From Alphaproteobacteria bacterium (GTDB taxonomy: Bacteria > Pseudomonadota > Alphaproteobacteria > JAJFIK01), in the NCBI GenBank assembly GCA_050331455.1, contig JBHJGV010000015.1:7697-71696 (forward strand): a DNA stretch of 64,000 nt, read 5' to 3'. Of this stretch, positions 9,867-63,614 are shown piece by piece. Position 1 is the first letter of the stretch. Each line of letters begins with the position of its first letter. The notes beneath the pieces were generated by a model. It ran no database searches, had not been told where the DNA came from, and worked only from the letters and a program-made list of their open reading frames with translations. The position numbers were made by a program, and so were the translations under genes.

Positions 9867-11159
9867 TCAGCCGTCAAACGACAGGGGAATCATGGAAGCC
9901 GTGAAGCCCGGGCCCAGGCCCGTGAGCAGCACGCGGCCCCGAGGCCCCGTCCGGCGGAAGCGGTCCAGGACGAACAAAACGGTGGGTGCGGACATATTCC
10001 CAAAATCCTCGATCACACCCCGCTCGTGGTCGAGGGCGCCCGCTTCGAGGCCCATTGTGGCCTCGATGGCCTCAAGCACCTTGATGCCGCCGGGGTGACA
10101 GACATAGCGGGTGATGTCCTCGCGGGTCAGATCCATCCGTTCCAGGCAGAAATCCACTGCGCCGGCGAACTCGCCGGTCACGAAGGGGGGGATGGAGCGG
10201 TCGAAAATCACGCCGAAACCGGTGGGATCCACGTCCCAGCCCATGATGTTCAGGCTATCGGTCCAGATATGCTGGACACCCGCGCCGAGCCGAGGCGCGC
10301 CGGTTGTCCCATTGCCGCCGTTCGTGCCGTTCACCGGGCCGCCCGGCATGTGGCTCGACAGCACGGCGGCAGCCGCCCCGTCGCCGAACAGAACCGTGGC
10401 GATGATGTCCGCCTTGCGGAGCTGGTCGTCCCGGAAGGCCAGGGTGCAGGTCTCAACACACACGAGAAGCACCGTGCTGCCGGGGCTTGCGGCCGCCAGG
10501 CGCTGGGCGATGGCAAGGCCGCTGACCCCGCCGGCACAGCCCAGGCCGAACACCGGCACACGCAGGATATCGTGGCGAAAACCCATGGTGCCGAAGGCCC
10601 GGGCTTCCAGAGTCGGCGTCGCAATTCCGGTCGAGGAAACGGTGACCACCACATCGACATCGGCTGCGGCGAGACCGGCCTCCGCGAGGGCGTTGGTCGC
10701 CGCCTCGACAAAGAGGGCCGTGGCCCCCTCCAGATACCGGGCCGTGCGCTCGGGCCAGTCCTGGGATGTCTGGAACCATTCCAGCGGGCAGACCGAGTAG
10801 CGCGTCTTCACACCGGACGACGTGAAGGTTCGGGCGAGGCGCTGGAAGTCCGGAAAGCGGGGACCGAGGATGCGGCCGGCGATCACCTCGACCACGTCCT
10901 GCTCCAGGACATGGGGCGGCACGGCCGTGCCGAGGCCGGCGAGGCGCACATCGGCCAGCGGGGCGTCCAGGGGCGCAGGAAAAGGGGCCGCGAGGGGGGC
11001 CGCGGCCGCCTCAGCGGCGGTGGAGCCGGTGCGCAGGGCCATCGGCGATGCAGGTGTCGAATTTTGAGGCATAGACTTCCGTTCTCTCGGTCTGGTGGAC
11101 TTGGCTTGTGCCGGCTCCGCCCTCCGTCCCGCATTGGGCCATCGCCGTCGTTTGGTCAC
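9867..11159 (-). CDS. Type III polyketide synthase (chalcone/stilbene-synthase superfamily)
   Basis: Active-site Cys context GLGCAGG, C-terminal GFGPGFTASM and catalytic His/Asn regions. N-terminal Ala/Pro-rich extension; the true start could be an internal Met (MPQNSTP or MALRTGS). Confidence 0.9.
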   Translation of the reverse strand: MTKRRRWPNAGRRAEPAQAKSTRPRERKSMPQNSTPASPMALRTGSTAAEAAAAPLAAPFPAPLDAPLADVRLAGLGTAVPPHVLEQDVVEVIAGRILGPRFPDFQRLARTFTSSGVKTRYSVCPLEWFQTSQDWPERTARYLEGATALFVEAATNALAEAGLAAADVDVVVTVSSTGIATPTLEARAFGTMGFRHDILRVPVFGLGCAGGVSGLAIAQRLAAASPGSTVLLVCVETCTLAFRDDQLRKADIIATVLFGDGAAAAVLSSHMPGGPVNGTNGGNGTTGAPRLGAGVQHIWTDSLNIMGWDVDPTGFGVIFDRSIPPFVTGEFAGAVDFCLERMDLTREDITRYVCHPGGIKVLEAIEATMGLEAGALDHERGVIEDFGNMSAPTVLFVLDRFRRTGPRGRVLLTGLGPGFTASMIPLSFDG

Positions 11160-11333: not shown

Positions 11334-13757
11334 TCAAGGCAGACGCCCCGGCGCACCCTTGTGGAACCGCAGGGCAAGGATCGCCGGCAAGGCCACAAGG
11401 CAGGTCACAAGCGCAATGCCGATCGTGGCAATGGCGAACAGGGCGAAGGTCGCGATCCCGGGCGACCAGCTCAGCAGGGCCGGCGCCAGGCCGAGCATCA
11501 ATACCAGACTGGTGAGCACAAGAACCGGGCCCACGTCCCGCATGGTCTTTGCGAGGCAGGTCCGCGGCGCCCGGCCTGCGCAGCGCTGGGCCCAGAACCC
11601 ATTCATCATATGCACCGTATCATCGACCGCGATGCCGAGGGCGATTGTCATCGCCAGGGCACTCGCCAATTGCAAGGGCCAATCGAACACATAAAGCAGA
11701 CCGCCCACTGCCAGCACCGGCAGAATGTTCGGCACAATGGTCAGCAGCGACACTTCAAAGGAGCGGAAGCCGAGCCCGACCAGCAGGGACGTGCCCAGGG
11801 CCGCGATCACCAAGGAAATCCCGAGCCTTCGAATGATCTCCTCGCTCACCCGGGAGGCCAGAACCACAATGCCGGTGGCCTGACCCGTCAGGTCCGCCTC
11901 GAGTTCCTCGCCGGCGATGGCCTCGATGCGGGCGGCGACGTCCGCCAGATTGGTCTTGTCCGTCTCCGCCACCCGAACCACCAGGGCGAGGGTGCTGCCG
12001 TCCCTGGACAGCAACAAACCTTTGAGGCCCTGGGGAGCGTGGTTAAACACCGTCTCGAGGCGCGGCGCGGAGACCGTCCTCCCCGTATCCGAGAGCCAGG
12101 AAACGATGGTCCAGGCGGAGTAGACCGGTCGGCCCAGGTCTGCCTCGACCGCCTTGTGCACACTGCGCAGCTTGAGCAGCGGCGCGAGATCGAAATTCTC
12201 TGCATTCACGGGGATCGGCAAAGGCATATGGAGCGTGTGGGCCCCGCCCAACTCTTCCTCCAACCGCTGCATGAGGGCGAAGGTTTCGGAATCATCCGGC
12301 ACTTCTTCGAGATAGGTGTAGCTCGGCGAGACCTGGCTATAGGCGAGGCCCGCGGCGACAGTAAAGGCGACGATCACCACCGTGATGACCAGGCGATAGC
12401 CATAAAGCGTGCGGGTCAGCGCGACGGCGGCGGCTTCGATGCCCTTGGCGATCCAGCCCGTGCCACGGAAGGTCGGCCGGGGACGCCACCCCAGATGCAG
12501 GGCCACCCACACCGAGGCCGGGAAGAAAACCATCGCCGAGATGAACACGCCGGCCACGGATGCCGCTCCGATCAAACCGAACTCGACCACGGCCCGGGAG
12601 CCGGAAAAGACCAGCGACAGGAAAGCGACCACGGTGGTCATGCTGGCGAGGCTGCAGGCCGGGCCGATGAAACCGATCGTTTTGGCAATGGCCTTGAAAT
12701 CGTAATTCGCAGCGAAAAGATCGCGCCGCGCCGCATAGACCAGGTGCATATTGGCGGCAAATGCGAGAGCGAGCACCAGCAATGGCAGATCGTTGAGCAG
12801 GACCGTCATGGGAATGTCGAGCCAGCCAAAGGCGCCATACACCATAACGATGCTGAGCATGGGCATCACGGCCACGATCACCGCATCCACCAGGACCCCG
12901 AGCAGGGCCACGCCCAGCAGAAACCCGATACTCAAACCGCCACCGAGCAGCAGCGGATGCTCCTCGATCAGGTGGCGCACGATTTCCGCCCGCACGATAG
13001 GAAGACCACTGAGCATCGCGGTCATGCCGTCGGGCAGACTGGCGATCAAGGGCGCCAGATCCTGTTCGATCGCCCGGGCCTCTTCCAGCCGCTCGCCCTT
13101 TTCCGGGAGCGCGAGCACCAGGGTGGCCGTCTCGAAATCGGGGCTGAGGAGCCGCCCGCCTTCGTTGAGGGGATGGAGGGAGAGCGCCTCGGCGCTCAGT
13201 GCCATATCGGGCTTGTTGGGTTCGGCCGTGGCAGGCTCACCCTCGGTGTGGCTCAAGGCCTGTTCGAGGGCCGCCGCTTCGAATTCGGCATTGTCGAAAA
13301 TATCGTCTTCGAAATCTTCCGGCTCCGGATCGCCCGCCGAGGTTTCCAGGCGATCGAGACTGACAATCGAAACCACATCCCCGACGGACGGCAGGGCCTC
13401 GACGGCGTGGATCAGACCCTGGAGCGCCAGCCAGTGGTCCTGCCGTTTGAAATCCCCGTCGAGCACGAGGATTGCGGCATCCGAGCCGTCCACAAACTGT
13501 CCGCGGAACTGATCGTAGGTCTGGTAGGCCGTGCTGCTCGGCGACTGGAAAATGCTGGTCAGGTTATCGGCGAAGCGGGTCTTGGTCGCCCCAAAAACCG
13601 CAAAGGCCAACACAAGGGCGATCACGGAGAGCATGACGCGGGGCTTCGCGACGGCAAACAGGCCGATGCGTTCGAGGCCGAAACCGATTGAGCCCACGCC
13701 GGTCCTCCAAAACTGCAGGCAGCACGTCCCGGATCGGTCCGGCGCATGCGAAACCAC
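11334..13757 (-). CDS. MMPL/RND-superfamily transporter (HpnN/MmpL-like lipid exporter)
   Basis: About 807 aa with 12 TM helices in two 6-TM bundles, each preceded by a large periplasmic loop (MMPL architecture). First gene of the minus-strand operon with the PKS and methyltransferase. Confidence 0.85.
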   Translation of the reverse strand: MVSHAPDRSGTCCLQFWRTGVGSIGFGLERIGLFAVAKPRVMLSVIALVLAFAVFGATKTRFADNLTSIFQSPSSTAYQTYDQFRGQFVDGSDAAILVLDGDFKRQDHWLALQGLIHAVEALPSVGDVVSIVSLDRLETSAGDPEPEDFEDDIFDNAEFEAAALEQALSHTEGEPATAEPNKPDMALSAEALSLHPLNEGGRLLSPDFETATLVLALPEKGERLEEARAIEQDLAPLIASLPDGMTAMLSGLPIVRAEIVRHLIEEHPLLLGGGLSIGFLLGVALLGVLVDAVIVAVMPMLSIVMVYGAFGWLDIPMTVLLNDLPLLVLALAFAANMHLVYAARRDLFAANYDFKAIAKTIGFIGPACSLASMTTVVAFLSLVFSGSRAVVEFGLIGAASVAGVFISAMVFFPASVWVALHLGWRPRPTFRGTGWIAKGIEAAAVALTRTLYGYRLVITVVIVAFTVAAGLAYSQVSPSYTYLEEVPDDSETFALMQRLEEELGGAHTLHMPLPIPVNAENFDLAPLLKLRSVHKAVEADLGRPVYSAWTIVSWLSDTGRTVSAPRLETVFNHAPQGLKGLLLSRDGSTLALVVRVAETDKTNLADVAARIEAIAGEELEADLTGQATGIVVLASRVSEEIIRRLGISLVIAALGTSLLVGLGFRSFEVSLLTIVPNILPVLAVGGLLYVFDWPLQLASALAMTIALGIAVDDTVHMMNGFWAQRCAGRAPRTCLAKTMRDVGPVLVLTSLVLMLGLAPALLSWSPGIATFALFAIATIGIALVTCLVALPAILALRFHKGAPGRLP

Positions 13758-20206: not shown

Positions 20207-22519
20207 ATGCAACCCATTCCCCAAAAACGGGTTCAATCACGACTGACCTGGATTAACGGGTTATTCATTTTATCCGGCCTCGCCGCATTCATCGGATTTC
20301 ATCAGATCGTTAACGGCGCAACGCTGCACAAGCATAATTTTTATCATGTGAAACACATCCACCAACTGAGCAAGCGCATCGAGACCCTGGACGATGGGAA
20401 GCCCGTGCCGACCGACATGTTCCGGGACATCGTCTTGAACATCCGCGCCCAACCTCTGACCTGCATCGCCATTATCGGGCCGATCGAAGCCTTTGCCATG
20501 CGGCTTGCGGGAACGGGACGAGCGATTGAGCTGTGCCGGGATGATATCCGCCTGGCCAACGAGACACTGGCGCTCATCGACGCGTATGGCAGGGGCGACC
20601 TGACGGTCGAGGGGTTTCGTGCCAACCTCCGGACCGCAGCCGATGAGTTTCTCGAAAAATCCATTGCCTTCGAGCCGCTCATCGACCGGAGCGTCGACCT
20701 CGTCGCGGCTACGGTCATGGTGCTGCTCGTGGTCAAGAGTCTCGGCATCGCGCTGGTCGGCGTGTTCCTCTCCAACGGGATCGGACGAAGCTATCGCCTG
20801 CTGGAGGAGACCAAGGAAGCGCTCATCATCAGCGAGAATCGCTACAACCGGGCGATCAACGGATCCTCGGATGGGATCTGGGATTGGGACCTGAGAACGG
20901 ATCACGTTTTTTATTCCGAACAGAACTTTCTGCTTCTGGGCGAGGATCCGAACTCCCATGCAGAGTTCTTTCTCTGGTGGGAAGAACGGGTGGATCCGGA
21001 GCATTGCAAGCGAGTCAAATCGGCCCTGCAACGGCATTTCGAGACCGGCGCGGACTATGACGAGACCTATCGGATCCGCCACGCGGATGGCCATTGGTGC
21101 TGGTGGCGATCGCGCGGGCAAGCCCTTCGAGACCCGGACGGAACACCGGTGCGGATGATGGGCACGAACAGCGACGTCACGGCGCTCGTCAAGGCCCAAC
21201 TCGCCGCGGAAGCCGCCCGGCGCGCGGTGCACCACGAGGCCACCCACGATGCCCTGACCGGGCTGCCCAATCGGCGACATCTCTCTTGCGTTCTCGAAGA
21301 CTATGATCGGCGGCCCGAACCGACCCCGCTCGCCATTGCCCATCTCGACCTCGACCGGTTCAAGGAGATCAATGACACGCTCGGACATGAAGCAGGGGAC
21401 CAGGTGCTGGTCCATTGCGCGAAGATCTTGCGGGCGTTCGTCAAAGACGGCGAGATTGCCGCGCGCATCGGCGGCGACGAATTCGTCATCGTGTTTCCCG
21501 ATGCCCCGGACGATCCGGTCCTCGTCGACCGGCTGAATGCGTTGACCGCGCGGCTCAGGGAACCCATTGCCCATGAGGGCAAGGAGTGCCGCATCGGCGC
21601 CAGCGTCGGGCTCGCCACTTCGTCCCTGGATCACGGATCGCCCAATGAACTTCTCCAATGGTCCGATCTCGCCCTCTACAAGGCCAAGGACCATCGGGGC
21701 GGTTGCGTCCTCTTCGACGCGGCCCTCAAGGCCGAGGTGGAAGACAAGAAACAGATCGCAGCCGATCTGACCACGGCTCTTTTGCGGGGTGAGTTTTTCG
21801 CCGTATACGAACCGCAGTTCGCCGCCGGCACCCATGACCTCATCGGTGTCGAGGCCCTGGCCCGCTGGAATCACCCCTCGCGCGGTGTCCTGGCCCCGGC
21901 CCATTTCCTCGATGTGGCCGACGACATGGGTGTAACGGCCGAGATCGACGATGCCATTCTCCAAAGGGCCCTCAAGGACCTCGATCGGCTTACGGACGAA
22001 GACGTGGTCATCCCGAAAGTGTCCCTCAACGTCTCCGCCCGCCGCCTACGCGACCCGAAGCTGTTGTCCCGGCTGCCGGACATGGGCGATCGCCCCTATT
22101 CGGTGACGTTCGAGCTGCTGGAGACCGTCTTTCTCGACCGTATCGATCCGACGACAGCGGACAATCTTCTCGAAATTAAACGCCGGGGCTTCGGCGTCGA
22201 AATCGATGATTTCGGGACGGGGCACGCCTCCGTGACCAGCGTCATGCGGGTGCGGCCGCGGCAGATCAAGATCGACCGGTCCCTGGTGGCACCTATCGTT
22301 GACAGTCTGGACCAACGCCAGATCGTCAAGTCGATCATCACCATCGGTCACGCCTTGAAGATCAGTGTCCTCGCGGAAGGCGTCGAGACCATGGCCCATG
22401 CGGCCATCCTGTCGGATCTGGGATGCGACGCGCTTCAGGGCCATGCCTTTTCCCGGCCGGTCCGTCCAGAGGCGCTGGCGTCCCTCATCGCGGACCGGCA
22501 TCGGACCCGGGTGGCCTAG
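20207..22519 (+). CDS. Sensor diguanylate cyclase/phosphodiesterase (2TM periplasmic sensor-PAS-GGDEF-EAL)
   Basis: Two TM segments flank a periplasmic domain of about 150 aa, followed by a PAS domain. GGDEF motif RIGGDEFVIVF. EAL domain (EALARW, ELLETVF, DDFGTG, KIDRS). Confidence 0.92.
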   Translation: MQPIPQKRVQSRLTWINGLFILSGLAAFIGFHQIVNGATLHKHNFYHVKHIHQLSKRIETLDDGKPVPTDMFRDIVLNIRAQPLTCIAIIGPIEAFAMRLAGTGRAIELCRDDIRLANETLALIDAYGRGDLTVEGFRANLRTAADEFLEKSIAFEPLIDRSVDLVAATVMVLLVVKSLGIALVGVFLSNGIGRSYRLLEETKEALIISENRYNRAINGSSDGIWDWDLRTDHVFYSEQNFLLLGEDPNSHAEFFLWWEERVDPEHCKRVKSALQRHFETGADYDETYRIRHADGHWCWWRSRGQALRDPDGTPVRMMGTNSDVTALVKAQLAAEAARRAVHHEATHDALTGLPNRRHLSCVLEDYDRRPEPTPLAIAHLDLDRFKEINDTLGHEAGDQVLVHCAKILRAFVKDGEIAARIGGDEFVIVFPDAPDDPVLVDRLNALTARLREPIAHEGKECRIGASVGLATSSLDHGSPNELLQWSDLALYKAKDHRGGCVLFDAALKAEVEDKKQIAADLTTALLRGEFFAVYEPQFAAGTHDLIGVEALARWNHPSRGVLAPAHFLDVADDMGVTAEIDDAILQRALKDLDRLTDEDVVIPKVSLNVSARRLRDPKLLSRLPDMGDRPYSVTFELLETVFLDRIDPTTADNLLEIKRRGFGVEIDDFGTGHASVTSVMRVRPRQIKIDRSLVAPIVDSLDQRQIVKSIITIGHALKISVLAEGVETMAHAAILSDLGCDALQGHAFSRPVRPEALASLIADRHRTRVA

Positions 22520-35439: not shown

Positions 35440-36381
35440 TTAGGAGCGGGCCCGGCTGAAATCGATCCCCAGATAGTTCTGCGGTCCGGGGATGAAAATC
35501 TTCTGCCAGAAATTCTTGCGCTTGAAGGGCATGCTCGCCACCGTCAGCACCGAGTGTATCTTCTGATAGGGCGTCATGGTGGAGGCGCGAATGGCCGCAA
35601 TATAGTTCTTCACCATTTCCACCTGGGCGATGGACCTCACGGGCGACTTGCTGTCGATCCACTTGTTTTTCTGCACCCGGCTTTGGAAGAAACTCATTTT
35701 CGGGTGCACGCGCTTGTTGAACAGATCCTCCTGAATTTGTTTCCACTTGCCGACAATCGCCGATTCCGCGAGCAGGACCTTGTCGGCGCCGTAATAGCTG
35801 CGCTGCAGCTCCGAGGTCTCCAGGAAGGTCCGGCGGAACAGGCCGAAGACCTGAAGGCACCAGCACACGTCCAGCAGCACGCTCTTGAAGCGCAGATCGG
35901 CCCGCTTCTGCTCGGCGATCCGCGCCCCGTCCTCGCCCATGAACCGGTTGCCATGCCGGTCTTCATATTCGTTCTTCGCGGCATCGTAGATGAGCCGGTT
36001 GCCCTCCATGTCGAGCATGTTGAGCCGGGTATAGGACAGAACCACGTCCGGATCGTTGTCGAGGGCCTCCACGCAGCGCTCGAGCCAGGTCGGCTCGTAA
36101 TAGTCGTCATGGGCATGCCAGGCGAAATACTGGCCCGTGGACTCGTGGAAGGTCTTGTTGAAGTTCGGCGAGGCACCCAGATTTTCCGGATTGCGTATAT
36201 ACCGGATGCGCGGATCACGCGCGGCAAAGCTCTCGCAGATCTCCTGCGTGTCGTCCGTGGACGCATTATCGCAGATGACCACTTCGAAATCCGTATAGGT
36301 CTGGGCCAGGATCGCTTCGAGGGCCGATCCCACATAGTTCGAGCCGTTATAGACGGGCAGTCCGATGGAAACTTTAGGCAT
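35440..36381 (-). CDS. Family 2 glycosyltransferase
   Basis: N-terminal GT-A motifs: SIGLPVYNGSNYVGSALEAILAQTY, DFEVVICDNASTD, DxD-like HDDY. GC is about 57-58% against about 67% in the neighbouring core genes. Confidence 0.85.
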   Translation of the reverse strand: MPKVSIGLPVYNGSNYVGSALEAILAQTYTDFEVVICDNASTDDTQEICESFAARDPRIRYIRNPENLGASPNFNKTFHESTGQYFAWHAHDDYYEPTWLERCVEALDNDPDVVLSYTRLNMLDMEGNRLIYDAAKNEYEDRHGNRFMGEDGARIAEQKRADLRFKSVLLDVCWCLQVFGLFRRTFLETSELQRSYYGADKVLLAESAIVGKWKQIQEDLFNKRVHPKMSFFQSRVQKNKWIDSKSPVRSIAQVEMVKNYIAAIRASTMTPYQKIHSVLTVASMPFKRKNFWQKIFIPGPQNYLGIDFSRARS

Positions 36382-57556: not shown

Positions 57557-58031
57557 CGTCTCCCTTCCGGCTGGCCTCGCGCTCGAGCCGGCCCGGAGCG
57601 CGGACTTTGAGGCCCTGTTCACCCTGATCGATGAGAGCTTCGCGCCGCTTCTTGGGCCCGCCGGCCAGTGGGACAGGGCCCGTGAACGTCGGATGTTTCG
57701 TCGCAGCTTCACGCCTGGACGAGATCTTGTGCTGCGCGCCTGCGGGCAGGATGGATCGGTCGCGGGGCTCTGGAGCGTCGCCGGGATCCCCGGCGGGCGC
57801 GTCCTGCTTTACGCGGTTTTGGCTCCGCAATGGCGCAATCGCGGCATCGGCTCCCGGTTGCTGGCGGCGCTGACGGGCGAGGCCGACGCGAATGGCATCC
57901 CTCTAGAGTTGACTGTGCATCGACTCAATCGCGCCAGTGCACTCTACGAACGCGTTGGCTTTCGTGCTGTTTTGGAGACAGACACAAAACTGAGAATGCG
58001 TTATTCTCCCAGTTTGAGACAGTGGGCTTAA
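57546..58031 (+). CDS. GNAT-family N-acetyltransferase
   Basis: Acetyl-CoA-binding motif [14 protein letters not shown] overlaps the rlmN stop. Confidence 0.7.
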
Positions 58032-58048
58032 CGGCGGTTTTGTGCGCA

Positions 58049-59545
58049 ATGCAGTGGTTCGACTCGCCATATGGGTCGCTGGGAGTCGTTCCCCGGCACC
58101 AGACCCAGGCCATTGCGCCTCTCGGAGCATATCCGCAGGGGCCCTATCCCCCTGCGCCACACCCGCAAATGGCCTACCAAATGGCTGTGGCCGGCGGGGA
58201 CCACTCGCTGTTTTACGGCCCCAATGGTCAGCCCTATGTGGCGCAGGCCTATGCCGGGTCCCCGCACCAAACGGACTACCCGCCCCACACTTACACGGCA
58301 GGTCCGCCCCATGCGGTCGGTCAGGGCCCTGTCGCGGAGCCCAACTACAACCCCTATGCGTTCTATCCGGATGGGAGCCAAGGCACCCAGCCCCAACCCC
58401 AACTGATGCCGATGCCGATGCCGATGCCGACGCAACAGCATCCGGCCCATTGGGGCCAGGCCTATTCCGATCCGGACTATGCGGGCGGTGGAGGCCATCA
58501 CGCCGGCACCATGCACCAGGGTTACGCCCAACATCCTTCATCGGCCCAGAACGCACCCTATCGGGGCGATCGGCAGGGATTCGGCCAGGAACAGATGGTC
58601 CAGAACCCCTATGGTCAGGTCGTCTACGCGGCGGATGGTGCCCATCACCAGGGCGTTGCCCAAGGCGGTCAGCCCTATCGCCAGGACCACGATCCCCATA
58701 GTGCGGGCAACGGCTACGGTTCTTACGCCCAAGGGCCCTACCCGCCGGGACAGCAGCCAACCTATCCCCCTGGCCAATATCCGAGCGGCCAATATCCCCC
58801 GCAGCCGGGTCAGTATCCCCCGCAAGGCGGCTACCCTCCAGGCTATGGCCATCCGGGCTATCCGCCCCAACATCCTGGTCCGGGCGGCTATCCGCCAATG
58901 CCGCCCGGAGGTGGTATGCAGTATCCGGACCAGAATGGATTCCTGCGCTGGATTTTTGCCTATTTCTGGGGCTGCGCCGGAGCTCTGCCCATCGTGATGA
59001 TCGGCTTTTTCCTATCCTTCAGCGCGATGGACCGGTTCAACAGCTTTGCCTCGGCCGTCATGATCATGATGATGCTCTCGCCGGTGTTCCTGGCGGCGAC
59101 CATGGCCGCCGGAGCCGTACCGACCATCGCCGCCCATTTCACGCTCCAGGGGATCCGGCGCATGGACGGCGCGAGCTACAGCGTCGCCGGCCTCATAGCC
59201 TGGGGTATTTTCGGGTTTTTCGGGTCGGTCTTCGCGTGGCTGTCGGTCAATGGCGCCCGCAGTTCGCGTTACAGCTCCGGTGACAGCGATGTCAGCATGC
59301 TTGGCCTGACGGTCACGGCCGGCCTGTCCGGGGCATTGGTGCTGTTCATCGTTTGGCTCATCCGGGTTCGGCCCATGATGTATGGCGGGATGTTGCCCGG
59401 ACGCACCCCGCCGGGACCACCGCCCGGCCCCCCTCCGGGACCGCCGCCCGCCCCCCCGCCGGAGCCGGCGCAACCCTCGTCGAACAAGAAGCCGGATCAG
59501 CCGAAACGCCCCGGTCCTTACGAAAGCCAGTATCCGTTCCTTTGA
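58049..59545 (+). CDS. Pro/Gln/Tyr/Gly-rich low-complexity protein with four C-terminal TM helices and a PPGP-repeat tail
   Basis: About 300 aa of compositionally biased sequence (YPPGQYPSGQYPPQPGQYPPQGGYPPGYGHPGYPP, PMPMPMP), then four hydrophobic helices and PPGPPPGPPPGPPPAPPP. GC3-rich and continuous, so it is likely a real gene. Confidence 0.6.
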   Translation: MQWFDSPYGSLGVVPRHQTQAIAPLGAYPQGPYPPAPHPQMAYQMAVAGGDHSLFYGPNGQPYVAQAYAGSPHQTDYPPHTYTAGPPHAVGQGPVAEPNYNPYAFYPDGSQGTQPQPQLMPMPMPMPTQQHPAHWGQAYSDPDYAGGGGHHAGTMHQGYAQHPSSAQNAPYRGDRQGFGQEQMVQNPYGQVVYAADGAHHQGVAQGGQPYRQDHDPHSAGNGYGSYAQGPYPPGQQPTYPPGQYPSGQYPPQPGQYPPQGGYPPGYGHPGYPPQHPGPGGYPPMPPGGGMQYPDQNGFLRWIFAYFWGCAGALPIVMIGFFLSFSAMDRFNSFASAVMIMMMLSPVFLAATMAAGAVPTIAAHFTLQGIRRMDGASYSVAGLIAWGIFGFFGSVFAWLSVNGARSSRYSSGDSDVSMLGLTVTAGLSGALVLFIVWLIRVRPMMYGGMLPGRTPPGPPPGPPPGPPPAPPPEPAQPSSNKKPDQPKRPGPYESQYPFL

Positions 59546-60907: not shown

Positions 60908-62254
60908 TCAGACCGCCCCGCCTTTGAGCGTCTTACCGTCGACGGCCGTGCCTTGGACTGTCTGGGGCATGGTCTCCGGCGCCGGATGATCCGCGCCCAG
61001 ATCTCTTGCCGGGCTGACCCACAGGAAATACAGGAAGCTGATCAAATGGCGCAGGGGGAACCAACCCGCTGCGATCATGATGGCCATCACGGGCGAGACC
61101 TGGGGCAGCAAAGCGAAAAGCCCGGCCACGGCCAGCGCGGCCCAGATATTCGCCTTGAGCACATGCATTGTGTCCGCATGGCGGTTCAGGATCACGGCAT
61201 GGGTGTAGATGCTGTTGGCGAGCGCGAGCCCGTAACTCGGCAGGATCACCATGGCCACGCCGAAGGCCTCCCAGGGCATCGGCGTCAGCTTCAAGGGGAA
61301 CACCGCCACATAGAGCGCCGCGGCAATACCGAGGCCGGACATGGTGCCGAAGGCAATCACCAGCATCAGGCTGCGCACCGTGGGCAGCTTCTCCACAAAG
61401 CGGGAGAAGAAAATATAATAACCCGGCTTGATCAGATTCAGGATCAACCGGCCCGTTGAAAAGCCCAGGGAATAAAGGCCCACAAAGGCCGGCCCGGTGA
61501 TCTGAGCTAGGATCAGCTTGTCCACATGCAGCAGGGAATGGGGCACAAGCTGACTGAGGCTCGCCATGACCGCATCGCGCAGATCGTGGAGCCGGAACTG
61601 GCGTATCGCCGTTCCGAAATTGGCAACAAAGCCGAACTCCCGGATCACCCAGAAAAAGGCGACGAAGCCAACCAGGGACGACAGGCCCACAAAAATATAG
61701 GTGGCAAATTCGATGTCCCCCGTGGTGCGGATCGCGAGGACGAAGGCGGCAAAGCCGCCGCCATAGGCCGCCAGATTGATCCAAAAACTGGTCCGGAAAC
61801 GCTTGAGCGCCTGGTTGACGGACACAAACAGGTTTCCCGGAAATTTCAGGGCCGCGAAAACACCGAGCAGGCCGAAATAGGAAATGGCCGACGGGTCCCG
61901 GAAAACGGCGAAATGGATGAGGACGAAGACCAGAGTACCCGCCAGAGTGATCACGACCCGGGCCGTGAACAGGGCGATCATCGCCAGGGTGTCCCGTGCG
62001 ACGACCTTCTGCACGTAAACGGTTCCCATTTCGAACAGGGACAGAACGCCGAACATGCCCAGCACGGCGGTCATGATTCGGAAAACCCCCGCGTCCTCCG
62101 CCGTGTTGAAGGCGAAGAGATAGAGGATCACGACATAATTCACGATGCCCGGCAGCGCATTGCCCATCATGGAGTAAGGCGCGCTTTTGAAGACGAAGCG
62201 AAGCATGCCGCGGCGTTTTCCAGACCGGTCGGCCGGGGAGGTCAAAGCTGTCAC
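60908..62254 (-). CDS. Polysaccharide biosynthesis / oligosaccharide flippase (Wzx, MOP superfamily) membrane protein
   Basis: About 448 aa with 12-14 TM helices and flippase-like topology. GC is lower (about 59-60%). Confidence 0.7.
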   Translation of the reverse strand: MTALTSPADRSGKRRGMLRFVFKSAPYSMMGNALPGIVNYVVILYLFAFNTAEDAGVFRIMTAVLGMFGVLSLFEMGTVYVQKVVARDTLAMIALFTARVVITLAGTLVFVLIHFAVFRDPSAISYFGLLGVFAALKFPGNLFVSVNQALKRFRTSFWINLAAYGGGFAAFVLAIRTTGDIEFATYIFVGLSSLVGFVAFFWVIREFGFVANFGTAIRQFRLHDLRDAVMASLSQLVPHSLLHVDKLILAQITGPAFVGLYSLGFSTGRLILNLIKPGYYIFFSRFVEKLPTVRSLMLVIAFGTMSGLGIAAALYVAVFPLKLTPMPWEAFGVAMVILPSYGLALANSIYTHAVILNRHADTMHVLKANIWAALAVAGLFALLPQVSPVMAIMIAAGWFPLRHLISFLYFLWVSPARDLGADHPAPETMPQTVQGTAVDGKTLKGGAV

Positions 62255-62280
62255 GGGACGCTCCGTTCGTTACACATAGG

Positions 62281-62314
62281 CAGGGTCGTCATTGGGGCAG
62301 GGTCGTCATTGGGA
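62281..62314. repeat. 17-bp tandem direct repeat (cagggtcgtcattgggg x2) in the flippase/sulfotransferase divergent promoter region
   Basis: Read directly, 27 nt upstream of the flippase start codon. Confidence 0.85.
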
Positions 62315-62741
62315 TAGAGCGGGAAAATCCGGGCATCGACGGGGGATGGTTTGAGTGCGCAACCCGGGTGCCTGCACCATGCTTTGCCCTCTCGATGCCC
62401 CCCAGTCTTATAGTCGGGATAGGAGCGCCTGTCTGGCCAGGAATGCAAGGGCGCCGTCATAGGGCGATCCCAACAGGGCGATCCCGCGGACGGGCCTCGT
62501 GACGTATTCCTGGCGGCTGTTCCGTGGCGGCCGCGGCCGGCCTTGCGGAATTGCAATTGGACAGGATCCGGCGTTGTGGTCGATAGCCTGGCGTGGTGTC
62601 GTGATCAACGGACGGGGCAGGGTGGCTCCGGTTGATGACCAGGACCCGTTGGGTTAAGAGCACGAATGCTGCGTTGCGAAAGGAACCGGGGCCGACCGAG
62701 CCCGCGGTCAGTCCCGACCGAAGGCACGTGAAGGAAAGTGA

Positions 62742-63614
62742 ATGATGACGTCTGCGCCAGGAAAGACCGTCGCCGACCCCCGGGTCGTCTACATCCTCGG
62801 CAGCGGCCATTGCGGTTCAACCCTGCTTCATTTGCTGATGAACGCCCATCCGGAGCTGTGCGGGACCGGCGAGTTGACCTTCCTGACCAAGATGAAAAAG
62901 CGTGCAATGGAAGAAGGGCCGGACGTCAAGGAACTCGAAGCGGTCCGATCCGAATTCTGGCAGTCGGTGTTCGAACGGTTCCAGGCCGAGAGCGACGTTG
63001 CCCTCGAGGAACTCAGCCTGCGCGAGTTCATTAACAGTCCTATGGCGGATTATATACGGGGCAGCGGACGGTATCCCGCCTGGCGCGCGATGCATCTCGC
63101 CCTTTTCCGGGCCCTCGGAGAGGTGTCCGGCAGGGAATGGGTGATCGATTCCTCCAAGACGGCGGGACGCTGTCTCCAGCTTCACGGTGTGCTGGGCGAC
63201 CGGATGCGGGTCATTCACCTCGTGCGGGATCGGCGGGGCGTGTTCAGTTCCTATTTGAAAAAATACGGTGTGGGCTATGGACTGCGCAGTTCCATCCTGG
63301 TGCCGATCTATTGCTATCTCGCCCAGACCATCCTGCGCAAAGTGACGCTCCGCGTGCGCTATGAAGATCTGGTGCGCAATCCCGAAGCGACGCTGCGCAC
63401 GATCTGCCGCTTCCTTGGCATCGACTATAGCGCCCAGATGCTGGATTTCCGGTCGGTGCCCGATTACAGCGTCAACGGCAACCGAATGCGCTTTTCCTCC
63501 AGCAGCGAAATCGTCCTTGACGAGAAATGGCGCCGCACGCTTTCCAAGCGGAACAAGGCGATCTTCACGGTGTTCGGCGGCTGGCTGAACTGGCTGGAGG
63601 GCTATACCTCCTGA
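62742..63614 (+). CDS. Sulfotransferase-family protein
   Basis: 5'-PSB-like P-loop YILGSGHCGSTLL and 3'-PB-like IHLVRDRRGV. Good RBS AAGGAAAG. GC about 58-59%. Confidence 0.75.
   Translation: MMTSAPGKTVADPRVVYILGSGHCGSTLLHLLMNAHPELCGTGELTFLTKMKKRAMEEGPDVKELEAVRSEFWQSVFERFQAESDVALEELSLREFINSPMADYIRGSGRYPAWRAMHLALFRALGEVSGREWVIDSSKTAGRCLQLHGVLGDRMRVIHLVRDRRGVFSSYLKKYGVGYGLRSSILVPIYCYLAQTILRKVTLRVRYEDLVRNPEATLRTICRFLGIDYSAQMLDFRSVPDYSVNGNRMRFSSSSEIVLDEKWRRTLSKRNKAIFTVFGGWLNWLEGYTS

Follow-up and report, generated by a model that had tools for sequence, protein, structure and literature searches.

A divergently transcribed Wzx-like membrane protein and sulfotransferase gene pair in an alphaproteobacterial genome and its possible role in surface-glycan sulfation

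The gene pair and its inheritance

The 64-kb stretch of alphaproteobacterial DNA analysed here (the window) carries two back-to-back genes set in a housekeeping region close to the replication origin. The first encodes a 448-aa, flippase-like membrane protein on the minus strand (60908-62254), the second a 290-aa sulfotransferase on the plus strand (62742-63614), and the two are transcribed divergently across a 487-bp spacer (62255-62741), exactly as an earlier sequence-only reading of this DNA had placed them. Public annotation starts the membrane protein at ATG 62206, giving 432 aa. However, GTG 62254, and hence the 487-bp figure for the spacer, is probably right, because this codon aligns with a TTG start in the genome of a sister lineage, and because both a GGAG ribosome-binding site lying 6 nt before it (62261-62264, minus strand; kept in the sister genome) and the additional N-terminal residues of the longer form (DRSG.R.G) are conserved. 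Both candidate starts are preceded by a conserved GGAG. In the sulfotransferase gene it is the second ATG, at 62745, that aligns with the start in the sister genome.

The same divergent pair was found in a single sister MAG, GCA_964449455.1, where the two proteins are 74-76% identical in amino acid sequence to those of the window. Both genes are under purifying selection (dN/dS of 0.18 for the membrane-protein gene and 0.155 for the sulfotransferase gene). In both genomes the membrane-protein gene has argG and the sulfotransferase gene as its neighbours. On the argG side, the window and the sister MAG share a syntenic block that exceeds 10 kb and 10 genes, while on the other side synteny breaks immediately past the sulfotransferase gene, which stays beside the flippase gene.

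The low GC content ascribed to both genes (about 59%) was close to the measured values of 60.3% and 60.0%, compared with 64.3% over the whole window and 63.9 +/- 2.7% across the genes it contains; this is a dip of only about 1.4 SD. Because GC3 is normal (0.79 and 0.77, vs a window mean of 0.78), the lower GC of both genes stems from amino-acid composition. For both genes dS relative to the sister is approximately 1.0, equal to that of the flanking housekeeping genes. A foreign origin or genomic island, which low GC might have implied, was therefore rejected: GC3 is typical, dS is that of the neighbours, and there are no mobility genes near the pair. The pair was inherited vertically together with its neighbouring genes.

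Glycosyltransferase, Wzy, initiating transferase, export and PAPS-synthesis genes were absent from the 64-kb window and from 10 kb beyond it, save for one isolated GT2 gene. With the PAPS synthase of L025 as query, no PAPS-synthesis gene was matched in the window, L006 or L001. The GT2 gene (35440-36381, minus strand; PF00535 match, 117 bits) does lie about 25 kb from the pair, as had been reported, but the functional link once suggested between them was rejected on context, as the gene is flanked by penicillin amidase and cupin genes within a housekeeping stretch.

The intergenic region

The spacer had been described as a repeat-bearing control region, and the 17-bp tandem direct repeat on which that description drew is real. 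A perfect 2x17-bp repeat, GGCAGGGTCGTCATTGG, lies upstream of the membrane-protein gene at 62279-62312, 25-58 nt from its start codon. Chance falls far short of explaining an exact tandem copy of 17 nt, which is a real duplication; three independent assemblies of the strain (L006, L007, and L008) all carry it, so that it is not an assembly artefact. No other copy occurs in the window at up to 3 mismatches. The sister genome has a single diverged copy only, and the tandem duplication is, on this comparison, lineage-specific. The 10-bp palindrome, AATTGCAATT, also exists, but it is located at 62549-62558, about 6 nt to the left of the position first estimated, and its occurrence is at chance level (1 match in the window vs 0.86 expected in shuffles, with at least one match in 58 of 100 shuffles). 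The sister sequence aligned to it differs. Both the duplication and the palindrome look incidental when the two genomes are compared. AGGGCGATCCC occurs twice at 62461-62485, with a 14-nt spacing, in a stretch missing from the sister genome, where the alignment has a gap.

Could the tandem repeat and the palindrome nevertheless be operator sites at which one regulator acts on both divergent genes? The two repeat units match exactly and lie close upstream of the flippase start, and a spacer of 487 bp is longer than is usual between bacterial genes. Against this, neither element is kept in the sister, although the proteins are so similar, the palindrome is at chance expectation, no further copy of either element occurs in the window, and no regulator gene was found beside the pair. 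We consider an operator role very improbable.

Compared with the 439-bp region of the sister, the spacer is mostly unconserved, and what the alignment shows to be kept is a single block together with the ribosome-binding region in front of the membrane-protein gene. A candidate promoter for the sulfotransferase gene, TTGATG-N17-TAAGAG (62632-62660, plus strand), lies in a region that takes in 62647-62672, the sole conserved spacer block by blastn; its hexamers and their spacing are identical in the sister, while the sequence between the hexamers has diverged. It was found by two-genome comparison and falls below the threshold of a consensus scan, and a simple scan of the spacer for the sigma-70 consensus returned 0 matches. 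No other candidate regulatory element shows any conservation, and this one may serve as a promoter. A short GC hairpin in the sulfotransferase leader (62689-62703), terminator-like on the minus strand, is faced in the sister genome by a different hairpin at the equivalent place (AAAAA GCCGG CCGAAA CCGGC); with two sequences only, it is a weak candidate. A hidden RNA or peptide in the spacer was rejected, since Rfam at E<=1 gave noise only (an archaeal snoRNA model, 18 bits vs 40) and comparing the two spacers in all six frames turned up no conserved peptide. The two-genome alignment of the spacer likewise disclosed no shared conserved regulatory element or other sign of co-regulation of the two genes.

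Family assignment of the two proteins

The membrane protein had been called a Wzx-like flippase of the MOP superfamily. Family homology and predicted fold agree with this, but the protein itself has no match of its own to Pfam (E<=0.1), Polysacc_synt included, or to NCBIfam. Its family is rare: an exhaustive search of 1.84 billion proteins, clustered at 50%, recovered 41 cluster representatives at E<=1e-3. Among 30 sampled family members, 12 matched Polysacc_synt_3 and 9 matched Polysacc_synt (E<=0.01). The membrane protein matches one relative, P0003 (PF01943), at E 5e-17, and the gene for this relative sits between those for a Bac_transf initiating transferase and a GT1, in a cluster that also has Wza and Wzy_C. 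Other loci of the family contain two GT4 genes and genes for GT2, Wzy_C, Poly_export, and UDP-glucose dehydrogenase. Location in a Wzx/Wzy-dependent cluster is thus seen for relatives, not for the window gene or its sister orthologue.

The Wzx/PST MOP fold has 12 transmembrane helices, and MurJ has 14. The AF2 model of the membrane protein (pLDDT 90.4) has 12 long helices, and its best fold matches in the PDB were the WzxE lipid III flippase at ranks 1-5 (E 4e-6, TM 0.64/0.67), followed by MurJ and MATE. These matches came from the fold search alone; the family profile found no match among PDB sequences. E. coli WzxE (PDB 9g9p), the best structural match, shares the 12-helix MOP fold with the model, but the window protein is only about 14-15% identical to WzxE. 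Compared with Wzx flippases generally, it has relatives that match Polysacc_synt or Polysacc_synt_3 and are encoded in clusters of the Wzx/Wzy type, but it reaches no Pfam or NCBIfam threshold, is a member of a rare clade, and is detached from glycosyltransferase and Wzy genes. Its assignment as a very divergent Wzx/PST-type member of the MOP superfamily holds only indirectly, by transitive homology and predicted fold. The conserved cationic residues R43, K230, R253, K260, and R386 are in line with the cationic lumen of Wzx proteins, which is used for anionic units (PMC3412221). A separate set of cationic residues, at positions 67, 71, 98, 121, 336, and 351, is present in the pair-type flippase and absent from the rest of its family.

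For the second gene, membership of the sulfotransferase family was borne out by profile, fold, and motifs. The protein matches Sulfotransfer_3 (PF13469) at 71.6 bits (cutoff 27) over profile positions 2-215 of 216, scores 28.9 bits with Sulfotransfer_1, and has 549 homologues. All of the top 50 PDB matches of its AF2 model (pLDDT 88.2) are sulfotransferases (best E 4e-9), among them the OLS/CurM ST domains and TPST1/2. On alignment, R162 of the 3′-phosphate-binding motif RDxRxxxxS, here HLVRDRRGVFSS, is invariant, and its R165 and S170 are nearly so; the invariant E44 falls opposite the Glu of PPEL in the CurM/OLS ST domains; and the 5′-PSB loop, GSGHCGSTLL, aligns to their SSPRSGSTLL, with G25, T27, and L28 invariant across the subfamily alignment and S26 nearly invariant. 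In this loop His23 replaces the usual Arg/Lys, and is itself nearly invariant across the subfamily. K139, in a DSSK motif, is an alternative to His23 as candidate stand-in for the loop Arg/Lys. The N-terminus, as read from the sequence, has no hydrophobic signal-like segment. Prediction of a PAPS-type sulfotransferase is solid on this combination of profile, fold, and motifs, and the enzyme is probably cytoplasmic.

With the TPST and CurM-OLS branch, the window enzyme shares its overall fold, a GxxGSTLL P-loop followed by the catalytic Glu, and the 3′-phosphate-binding RDxR...S. However, it has His for the Arg of PRSG(S/T)T and is only 16-25% identical, and while these enzymes act on tyrosine or beta-hydroxyacyl-ACP, the context of the window enzyme's relatives points to glycan acceptors. 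Its nearest relatives (30-39% identity) are all encoded in glycan clusters, and the five sampled loci of its closest subfamily (5/5) lie among glycosyltransferases and Wzx/Wzy/Wzz or ABC export genes, with a PAPS synthase gene 3 kb away in one of the five.

The earlier analogy with NodH-type host interaction found no support. The rhizobial enzymes NodH, NoeE, and LpsS exemplify alphaproteobacterial PAPS-dependent sulfation of surface or secreted glycoconjugates, and LpsS is a Stf0-family enzyme (PMC12445080). The window sulfotransferase scored 22.5 bits with the NoeE model (cutoff 500) and 13.6 bits with the Stf0 model (cutoff 22), and by these scores is not orthologous to NoeE or LpsS. No nod genes lie near the pair.

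A possible glycan modification and export module

A sulfated surface glycan is the most likely theme, as the sequence-only reading had hinted, because both proteins have relatives that are encoded in polysaccharide clusters. We lean, at slightly better than even confidence, towards the view that the pair is a small surface-glycan modification and export module for a sulfated polysaccharide unit. The soluble sulfotransferase, with PAPS as donor, would, in the cytoplasm, add sulfate to a sugar within an oligosaccharide unit linked to undecaprenyl pyrophosphate, the unit having been assembled by glycosyltransferases encoded elsewhere in the genome. The 12-helix Wzx-type flippase would then carry the anionic lipid-linked unit to the periplasmic face, where a Wzy polymerase, ligase, or export machinery, also encoded elsewhere, would complete the surface glycan. 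We infer the common substrate, the nature of the acceptor, and the order of sulfation before flipping, all three, and PAPS synthesis and the remainder of the pathway would have to be present in the genome.

Such a module would be an ordinary kind of system, and as such is plausible. In Synechocystis PCC 6803, the synechan xss genes form a Wzx-dependent sulfated exopolysaccharide cluster with sulfotransferases (PMC8205485), and the nodP2-smb21248 cluster on pSymB of S. meliloti has Wzx1, three sulfotransferases, and nodP2Q2 (PMC5498481). Like the window locus, both combine Wzx with one or more sulfotransferases, and the sulfation step is presumed to be cytoplasmic (PMC8205485; PMC5498481). However, these clusters span approximately 20-30 kb, with 8-13 glycosyltransferases, Wzy, and PCP/OPX, whereas the window locus consists of a flippase and one sulfotransferase, and it is without the PAPS-synthesis genes of the S. 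meliloti cluster. The comparison drawn with XssA/XssE and SMb21237/43/49 is one of gene content.

Several observations weigh against a glycan module. Pathway genes other than the isolated GT2 are missing nearby, and the pairing is confined to two related MAGs; with two genomes and a syntenic argG block, adjacency could be plain inheritance. Co-conservation of the two genes, which the sequence-only reading had set as a test, held only narrowly: the sister MAG keeps the pair, but 0 of 20 other flippase-family loci (12 from genomes, 8 from metagenomes) had a sulfotransferase gene by tblastn and family HMM, in a search that recovered its positive controls. These 20 loci led us to reject any general association between this flippase clade and sulfotransferases. 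The two genes might then be unrelated neighbours, the flippase serving an unsulfated polysaccharide and the sulfotransferase some other acceptor, held together by inherited gene order. Given more than 10 syntenic genes on the argG side, one more kept neighbour is unsurprising, the sampled sulfotransferase-family loci rely on other flippases or ABC exporters, and the spacer offers no shared regulatory element. Yet both families are tied to polysaccharide clusters, which makes their standing side by side in a housekeeping region an unlikely coincidence, and the sulfotransferase gene stayed with the flippase gene though synteny breaks directly beyond it. Mere adjacency is in our judgement unlikely, if not negligibly so.

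Further points against the module concern the enzyme and the spacer. Among solved structures, the nearest relatives of the sulfotransferase use acyl-ACP or protein tyrosine as acceptor rather than sugars; His takes the place of the canonical Arg/Lys in its 5′-PSB loop; and the spacer is without a sign of co-regulation. The pair could instead make a sulfated non-polysaccharide (a lipid, glycolipid, small metabolite, or peptide), which the MOP-fold protein would export or flip without Wzy-type polymerisation. The best solved sulfotransferase relatives, acyl-chain ST domains of CurM/OLS and tyrosylprotein sulfotransferases, would suit such substrates, as would a locus without a glycosyltransferase, a superfamily that includes drug and metabolite exporters (MATE is among the fold matches), and the cationic residues peculiar to the pair-type flippase. 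On the other hand, the membrane protein is closest in fold to WzxE, proteins related to it by sequence are of the Polysacc_synt type and encoded in EPS clusters, the nearest sulfotransferase relatives are all from glycan clusters, and no conserved small ORF for a peptide substrate exists in the spacer; we regard a non-polysaccharide substrate as distinctly unlikely. A bolder proposal is a self-contained two-gene unit outside any Wzy pathway, a new route for envelope sulfate esters, in which a His-type, TPST/CurM-like sulfotransferase may modify a small or membrane-anchored substrate other than a polysaccharide, for example a lipid, lipid-linked monosaccharide, or metabolite, and the highly divergent MOP transporter, having acquired extra cationic residues, may be its dedicated flippase or exporter. 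This we think decidedly improbable.

The pair does not overturn current understanding. The rare Wzx clade to which its membrane protein would belong is missed by Pfam and NCBIfam models and is consequently annotated as "hypothetical" by pipelines, and its sulfotransferase exemplifies a large subfamily in which G-S-G-H-C-G-S-T-L-L replaces the canonical P-R/K-S-G-T-T loop. Beyond cyanobacteria, rhizobia, and some marine bacteria, few bacterial sulfated surface glycans have been documented. If the glycan-module reading is true, an uncultured alphaproteobacterial lineage would join the known producers. Wzx proteins favour their cognate unit (PMC6436433), and a sulfotransferase adjoining its own flippase would be a minimal arrangement that fits a Wzx matched to the modified unit.

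The divergent genes and their products

The two divergently oriented ORFs lie 487 bp apart and encode a flippase-like membrane protein of 448 aa (60908..62254, minus strand) and a sulfotransferase of 290 aa (62742..63614, plus strand), in agreement with the sequence-only reading. In the public annotation the membrane protein begins at ATG 62206 (432 aa). We retained the longer ORF because GTG 62254 is matched by a TTG start in the alignment to the sister genome GCA_964449455.1, a GGAG precedes each of these starts, and DRSG.R.G is common to the added N-terminal residues in the two genomes. For the sulfotransferase gene, it is the second ATG (62745) that aligns with the sister's start. Both genes are lower in GC (60.3% and 60.0%) than window genes overall (63.9 +/- 2.7%), as had been noted, but their GC3 (0.79 and 0.77) matches the average for the window (0.78), and the dip therefore reflects amino-acid composition rather than foreign DNA. 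The sulfotransferase gene has a 13-bp 3' overlap (63602-63614) with a convergent ThiF-family gene, which is not at this position in the sister genome.

No Pfam or NCBIfam model matched the membrane protein, and a word-indexed search returned only the protein itself, its sister orthologue (73%) and one Polysacc_synt protein (26% identity, E 5e-17). Exhaustive HMMER searching of 1.84 billion representatives yielded 41 relatives at E<=1e-3, none above 37% identity; the clade is rare. Polysacc_synt_3 matched 12 of 30 aligned family members and Polysacc_synt 9 of 30, while the family profile found nothing among PDB sequences. The AF2 model (pLDDT 90.4, 12 long helices) has as its best fold match the lipid III flippase WzxE (E 4e-6, TM 0.64/0.67), with MurJ and MATE transporters ranking after it. 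The proposed assignment to the MOP superfamily as a Wzx-like flippase thus stands on transitive homology and fold, not on direct family membership. The pair-type flippases (n=2) share Lys/Arg/His at positions 67, 71, 98, 121, 336, and 351 (432-aa numbering), which are uncharged or acidic in 79-96% of the other 28 family members.

The 290-aa protein matched Sulfotransfer_3 (71.6 bits) and Sulfotransfer_1 (28.9 bits) in Pfam, and its AF2 model (pLDDT 88.2) matched sulfotransferases only: OLS/CurM ST domains and TPST1/2, then Stf1/Stf9, cytosolic SULTs, and heparan sulfate sulfotransferases. Among 549 homologues at E<=1e-3, only the sister MAG's protein (76%) exceeds 40% identity. An alignment with 21 homologues showed conservation of G-S-G-H-C-G-S-T-L-L, E44, D136/S138/K139, R162/R165/S170, YEDL, and GNRMR. 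The lack of PAPS-binding residues that would have refuted the assignment was not seen: the P-loop aligns with SSPRSGSTLL of solved structures, and E44 with the Glu of PPEL in CurM/OLS sulfotransferase domains. One caveat concerns the 5'-PSB loop (residues 20-29), which reads G-[SA]-G-H-[CS]-G-S-T-L-L throughout the subfamily, with His at the catalytic Arg/Lys position of characterised sulfotransferases; the conserved D-S-S-K motif might supply the missing cationic side chain. A signal-like hydrophobic segment is absent from the N-terminus, in keeping with PAPS use in the cytoplasm. By profile comparison, the enzyme is an orthologue of neither NoeE nor Stf0/LpsS. LpsS belongs to the Stf0 family (PMC12445080).

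The intergenic region

The spacer holds an exact tandem duplication of GGCAGGGTCGTCATTGG (62279-62312), found in three independent assemblies of the strain and with no further copy elsewhere in the window; the palindrome AATTGCAATT (62549-62558), occurring once in the window, about as often as in shuffled sequence (0.86 expected); and two copies of the short direct repeat AGGGCGATCCC (62461-62485). Alignment with the sister's 439-bp spacer revealed little conservation: the 17-mer occurs there only once and in diverged form, nothing resembles AATTGCAATT, and the stretch with AGGGCGATCCC is missing. The proposed control region with its repeats thus exists as sequence, but nothing supports a function for it. 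That the repeats serve as operators is very improbable, and recent duplication by slippage best explains the tandem repeat.

Shared with the sister are the flippase gene's start region with its GGAG, a block spanning 62647-62672, and, around this block, the hexamers TTGATG (62632-62637) and TAAGAG (62655-62660), separated by 17 nt of diverged sequence in both genomes. TTGATG-N17-TAAGAG is the pattern expected of a promoter and makes a candidate for the sulfotransferase gene; a consensus promoter scan of the intergenic region reported no site. A short GC hairpin (62689-62703) in the sulfotransferase leader, with a different hairpin at the equivalent sister position, is weak evidence. Neither an Rfam family nor a peptide conserved with the sister was found in the region.

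Genomic surroundings and relatives' loci

The window belongs to an Alphaproteobacteria MAG (GCA_964406365.1), in which the genes run argG, flippase, sulfotransferase, ThiF-family gene, LpxR, hypothetical, gyrB-recF-dnaN-dnaA. The last four genes (1-5843 of L006, the locus of the window's own genome that reaches past the window's right end) place the pair a few kb away, near the chromosomal replication origin region. Also in L006, the LpxR gene (lipid A 3'-O-deacylase family, PF09982; 6735-7748) lies within ~2-5 kb of the flippase, as it does in two other flippase-clade loci, L016 (4805-5911) and L018 (4674-5708). These two are apparently syntenic, leaving about two independent observations, and the proximity may reflect an LPS connection or coincidence.

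In the sister MAG the pair, likewise divergent, again adjoins argG, with different neighbours past the sulfotransferase (a DUF4142/DUF305 protein and acyl-CoA dehydrogenases). Identity between the two MAGs is 74-76% for the pair and 60-94% for flanking genes; the pair has a dS of ~1.0, against 0.94-1.29 in argG, rlmN, and the asparaginase gene, and dN/dS of the pair genes is 0.155 and 0.18. Both genes are therefore functional and have been inherited vertically together with their surroundings.

Pfam scans of ~45 further window ORFs found housekeeping and miscellaneous genes and no glycan gene besides a GT2 gene (35440-36381). This gene had been linked to the pair; it exists, but is isolated between penicillin amidase and cupin genes. 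The window contains no PAPS-synthesis genes. On the minus strand, a type III polyketide synthase (Chal_sti_synt, 9867-11159) adjoins an MMPL/sterol-sensing-domain RND-type transporter (11334-13757), which may form a phenolic-lipid synthesis and export locus. A PAS-GGDEF-EAL protein for c-di-GMP turnover, whose class is often associated with the control of exopolysaccharides, is encoded at 20207-22519 (plus strand), ~40 kb from the pair. A 571-aa ORF (57830-59545, plus strand; annotated as 505 aa) has no Pfam match. Its long N-terminal half is of low complexity and rich in Pro, Gln, Gly, and Tyr, and the protein also contains a hydrophobic segment and a tail of PPGP repeats; the sister counterpart has only 214 aa (60% identity over 215 aa), so the low-complexity half appears lineage-specific.

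Twelve genome and eight metagenome loci of the flippase clade, mostly Hyphomicrobiales (Methylobacterium, Bosea, Aureimonas, Pseudolabrys, Beijerinckiaceae), are canonical Wzx/Wzy clusters, with two GT4 genes, GT2, Wzy_C, Poly_export, UDP-glucose dehydrogenase, acyltransferase, and epimerase as conserved neighbours. Neither tblastn nor a family HMM that recovered all positive controls detected a sulfotransferase in any of the 20; the pair is conserved in the sister MAG but in none of these loci. All five sampled loci of the nearest sulfotransferase relatives (34-39% identity) are rich in glycosyltransferases and carry Wzx/Wzy/Wzz or an ABC exporter; several sulfotransferases are often present per locus, and in one locus a PAPS synthase lies at a distance of 3 kb. 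Both protein families, taken singly, are thus associated with polysaccharides, but their combination is specific to the two MAGs. That the two are unrelated neighbours, adjacent through inherited gene order, is unlikely: the absence of sulfotransferases from the 20 clade loci would suit it, and the shared polysaccharide association would not. The same association weighs against a MOP transporter exporting a sulfated product other than a polysaccharide, a reading that we consider slightly less probable again, even with OLS/CurM domains and MATE transporters among the fold matches.

A putative route to a sulfated glycan

In the general scheme of Wzx/Wzy pathways, the unit is modified on the cytoplasmic face. 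The most likely reading of the pair, which we favour by somewhat better than even chances, is sulfation of an Und-PP-linked unit and its flipping by the adjacent Wzx-type protein. The cytoplasmic sulfotransferase would sulfate a sugar unit that enzymes encoded elsewhere have built, and the flippase would translocate the resulting anionic unit. Known sulfated-polysaccharide clusters offer precedent (PMC8205485, PMC5498481), and the mechanism also agrees with the preference of Wzx proteins for their cognate unit and with their cationic lumen (PMC6436433, PMC3412221). Systems that pair a sulfotransferase with a Wzx flippase to make a sulfated glycan are of a known kind; what is new is the orphan two-gene arrangement, a rare Wzx clade undetected by current profile libraries, and the His-type PSB loop of the sulfotransferase.
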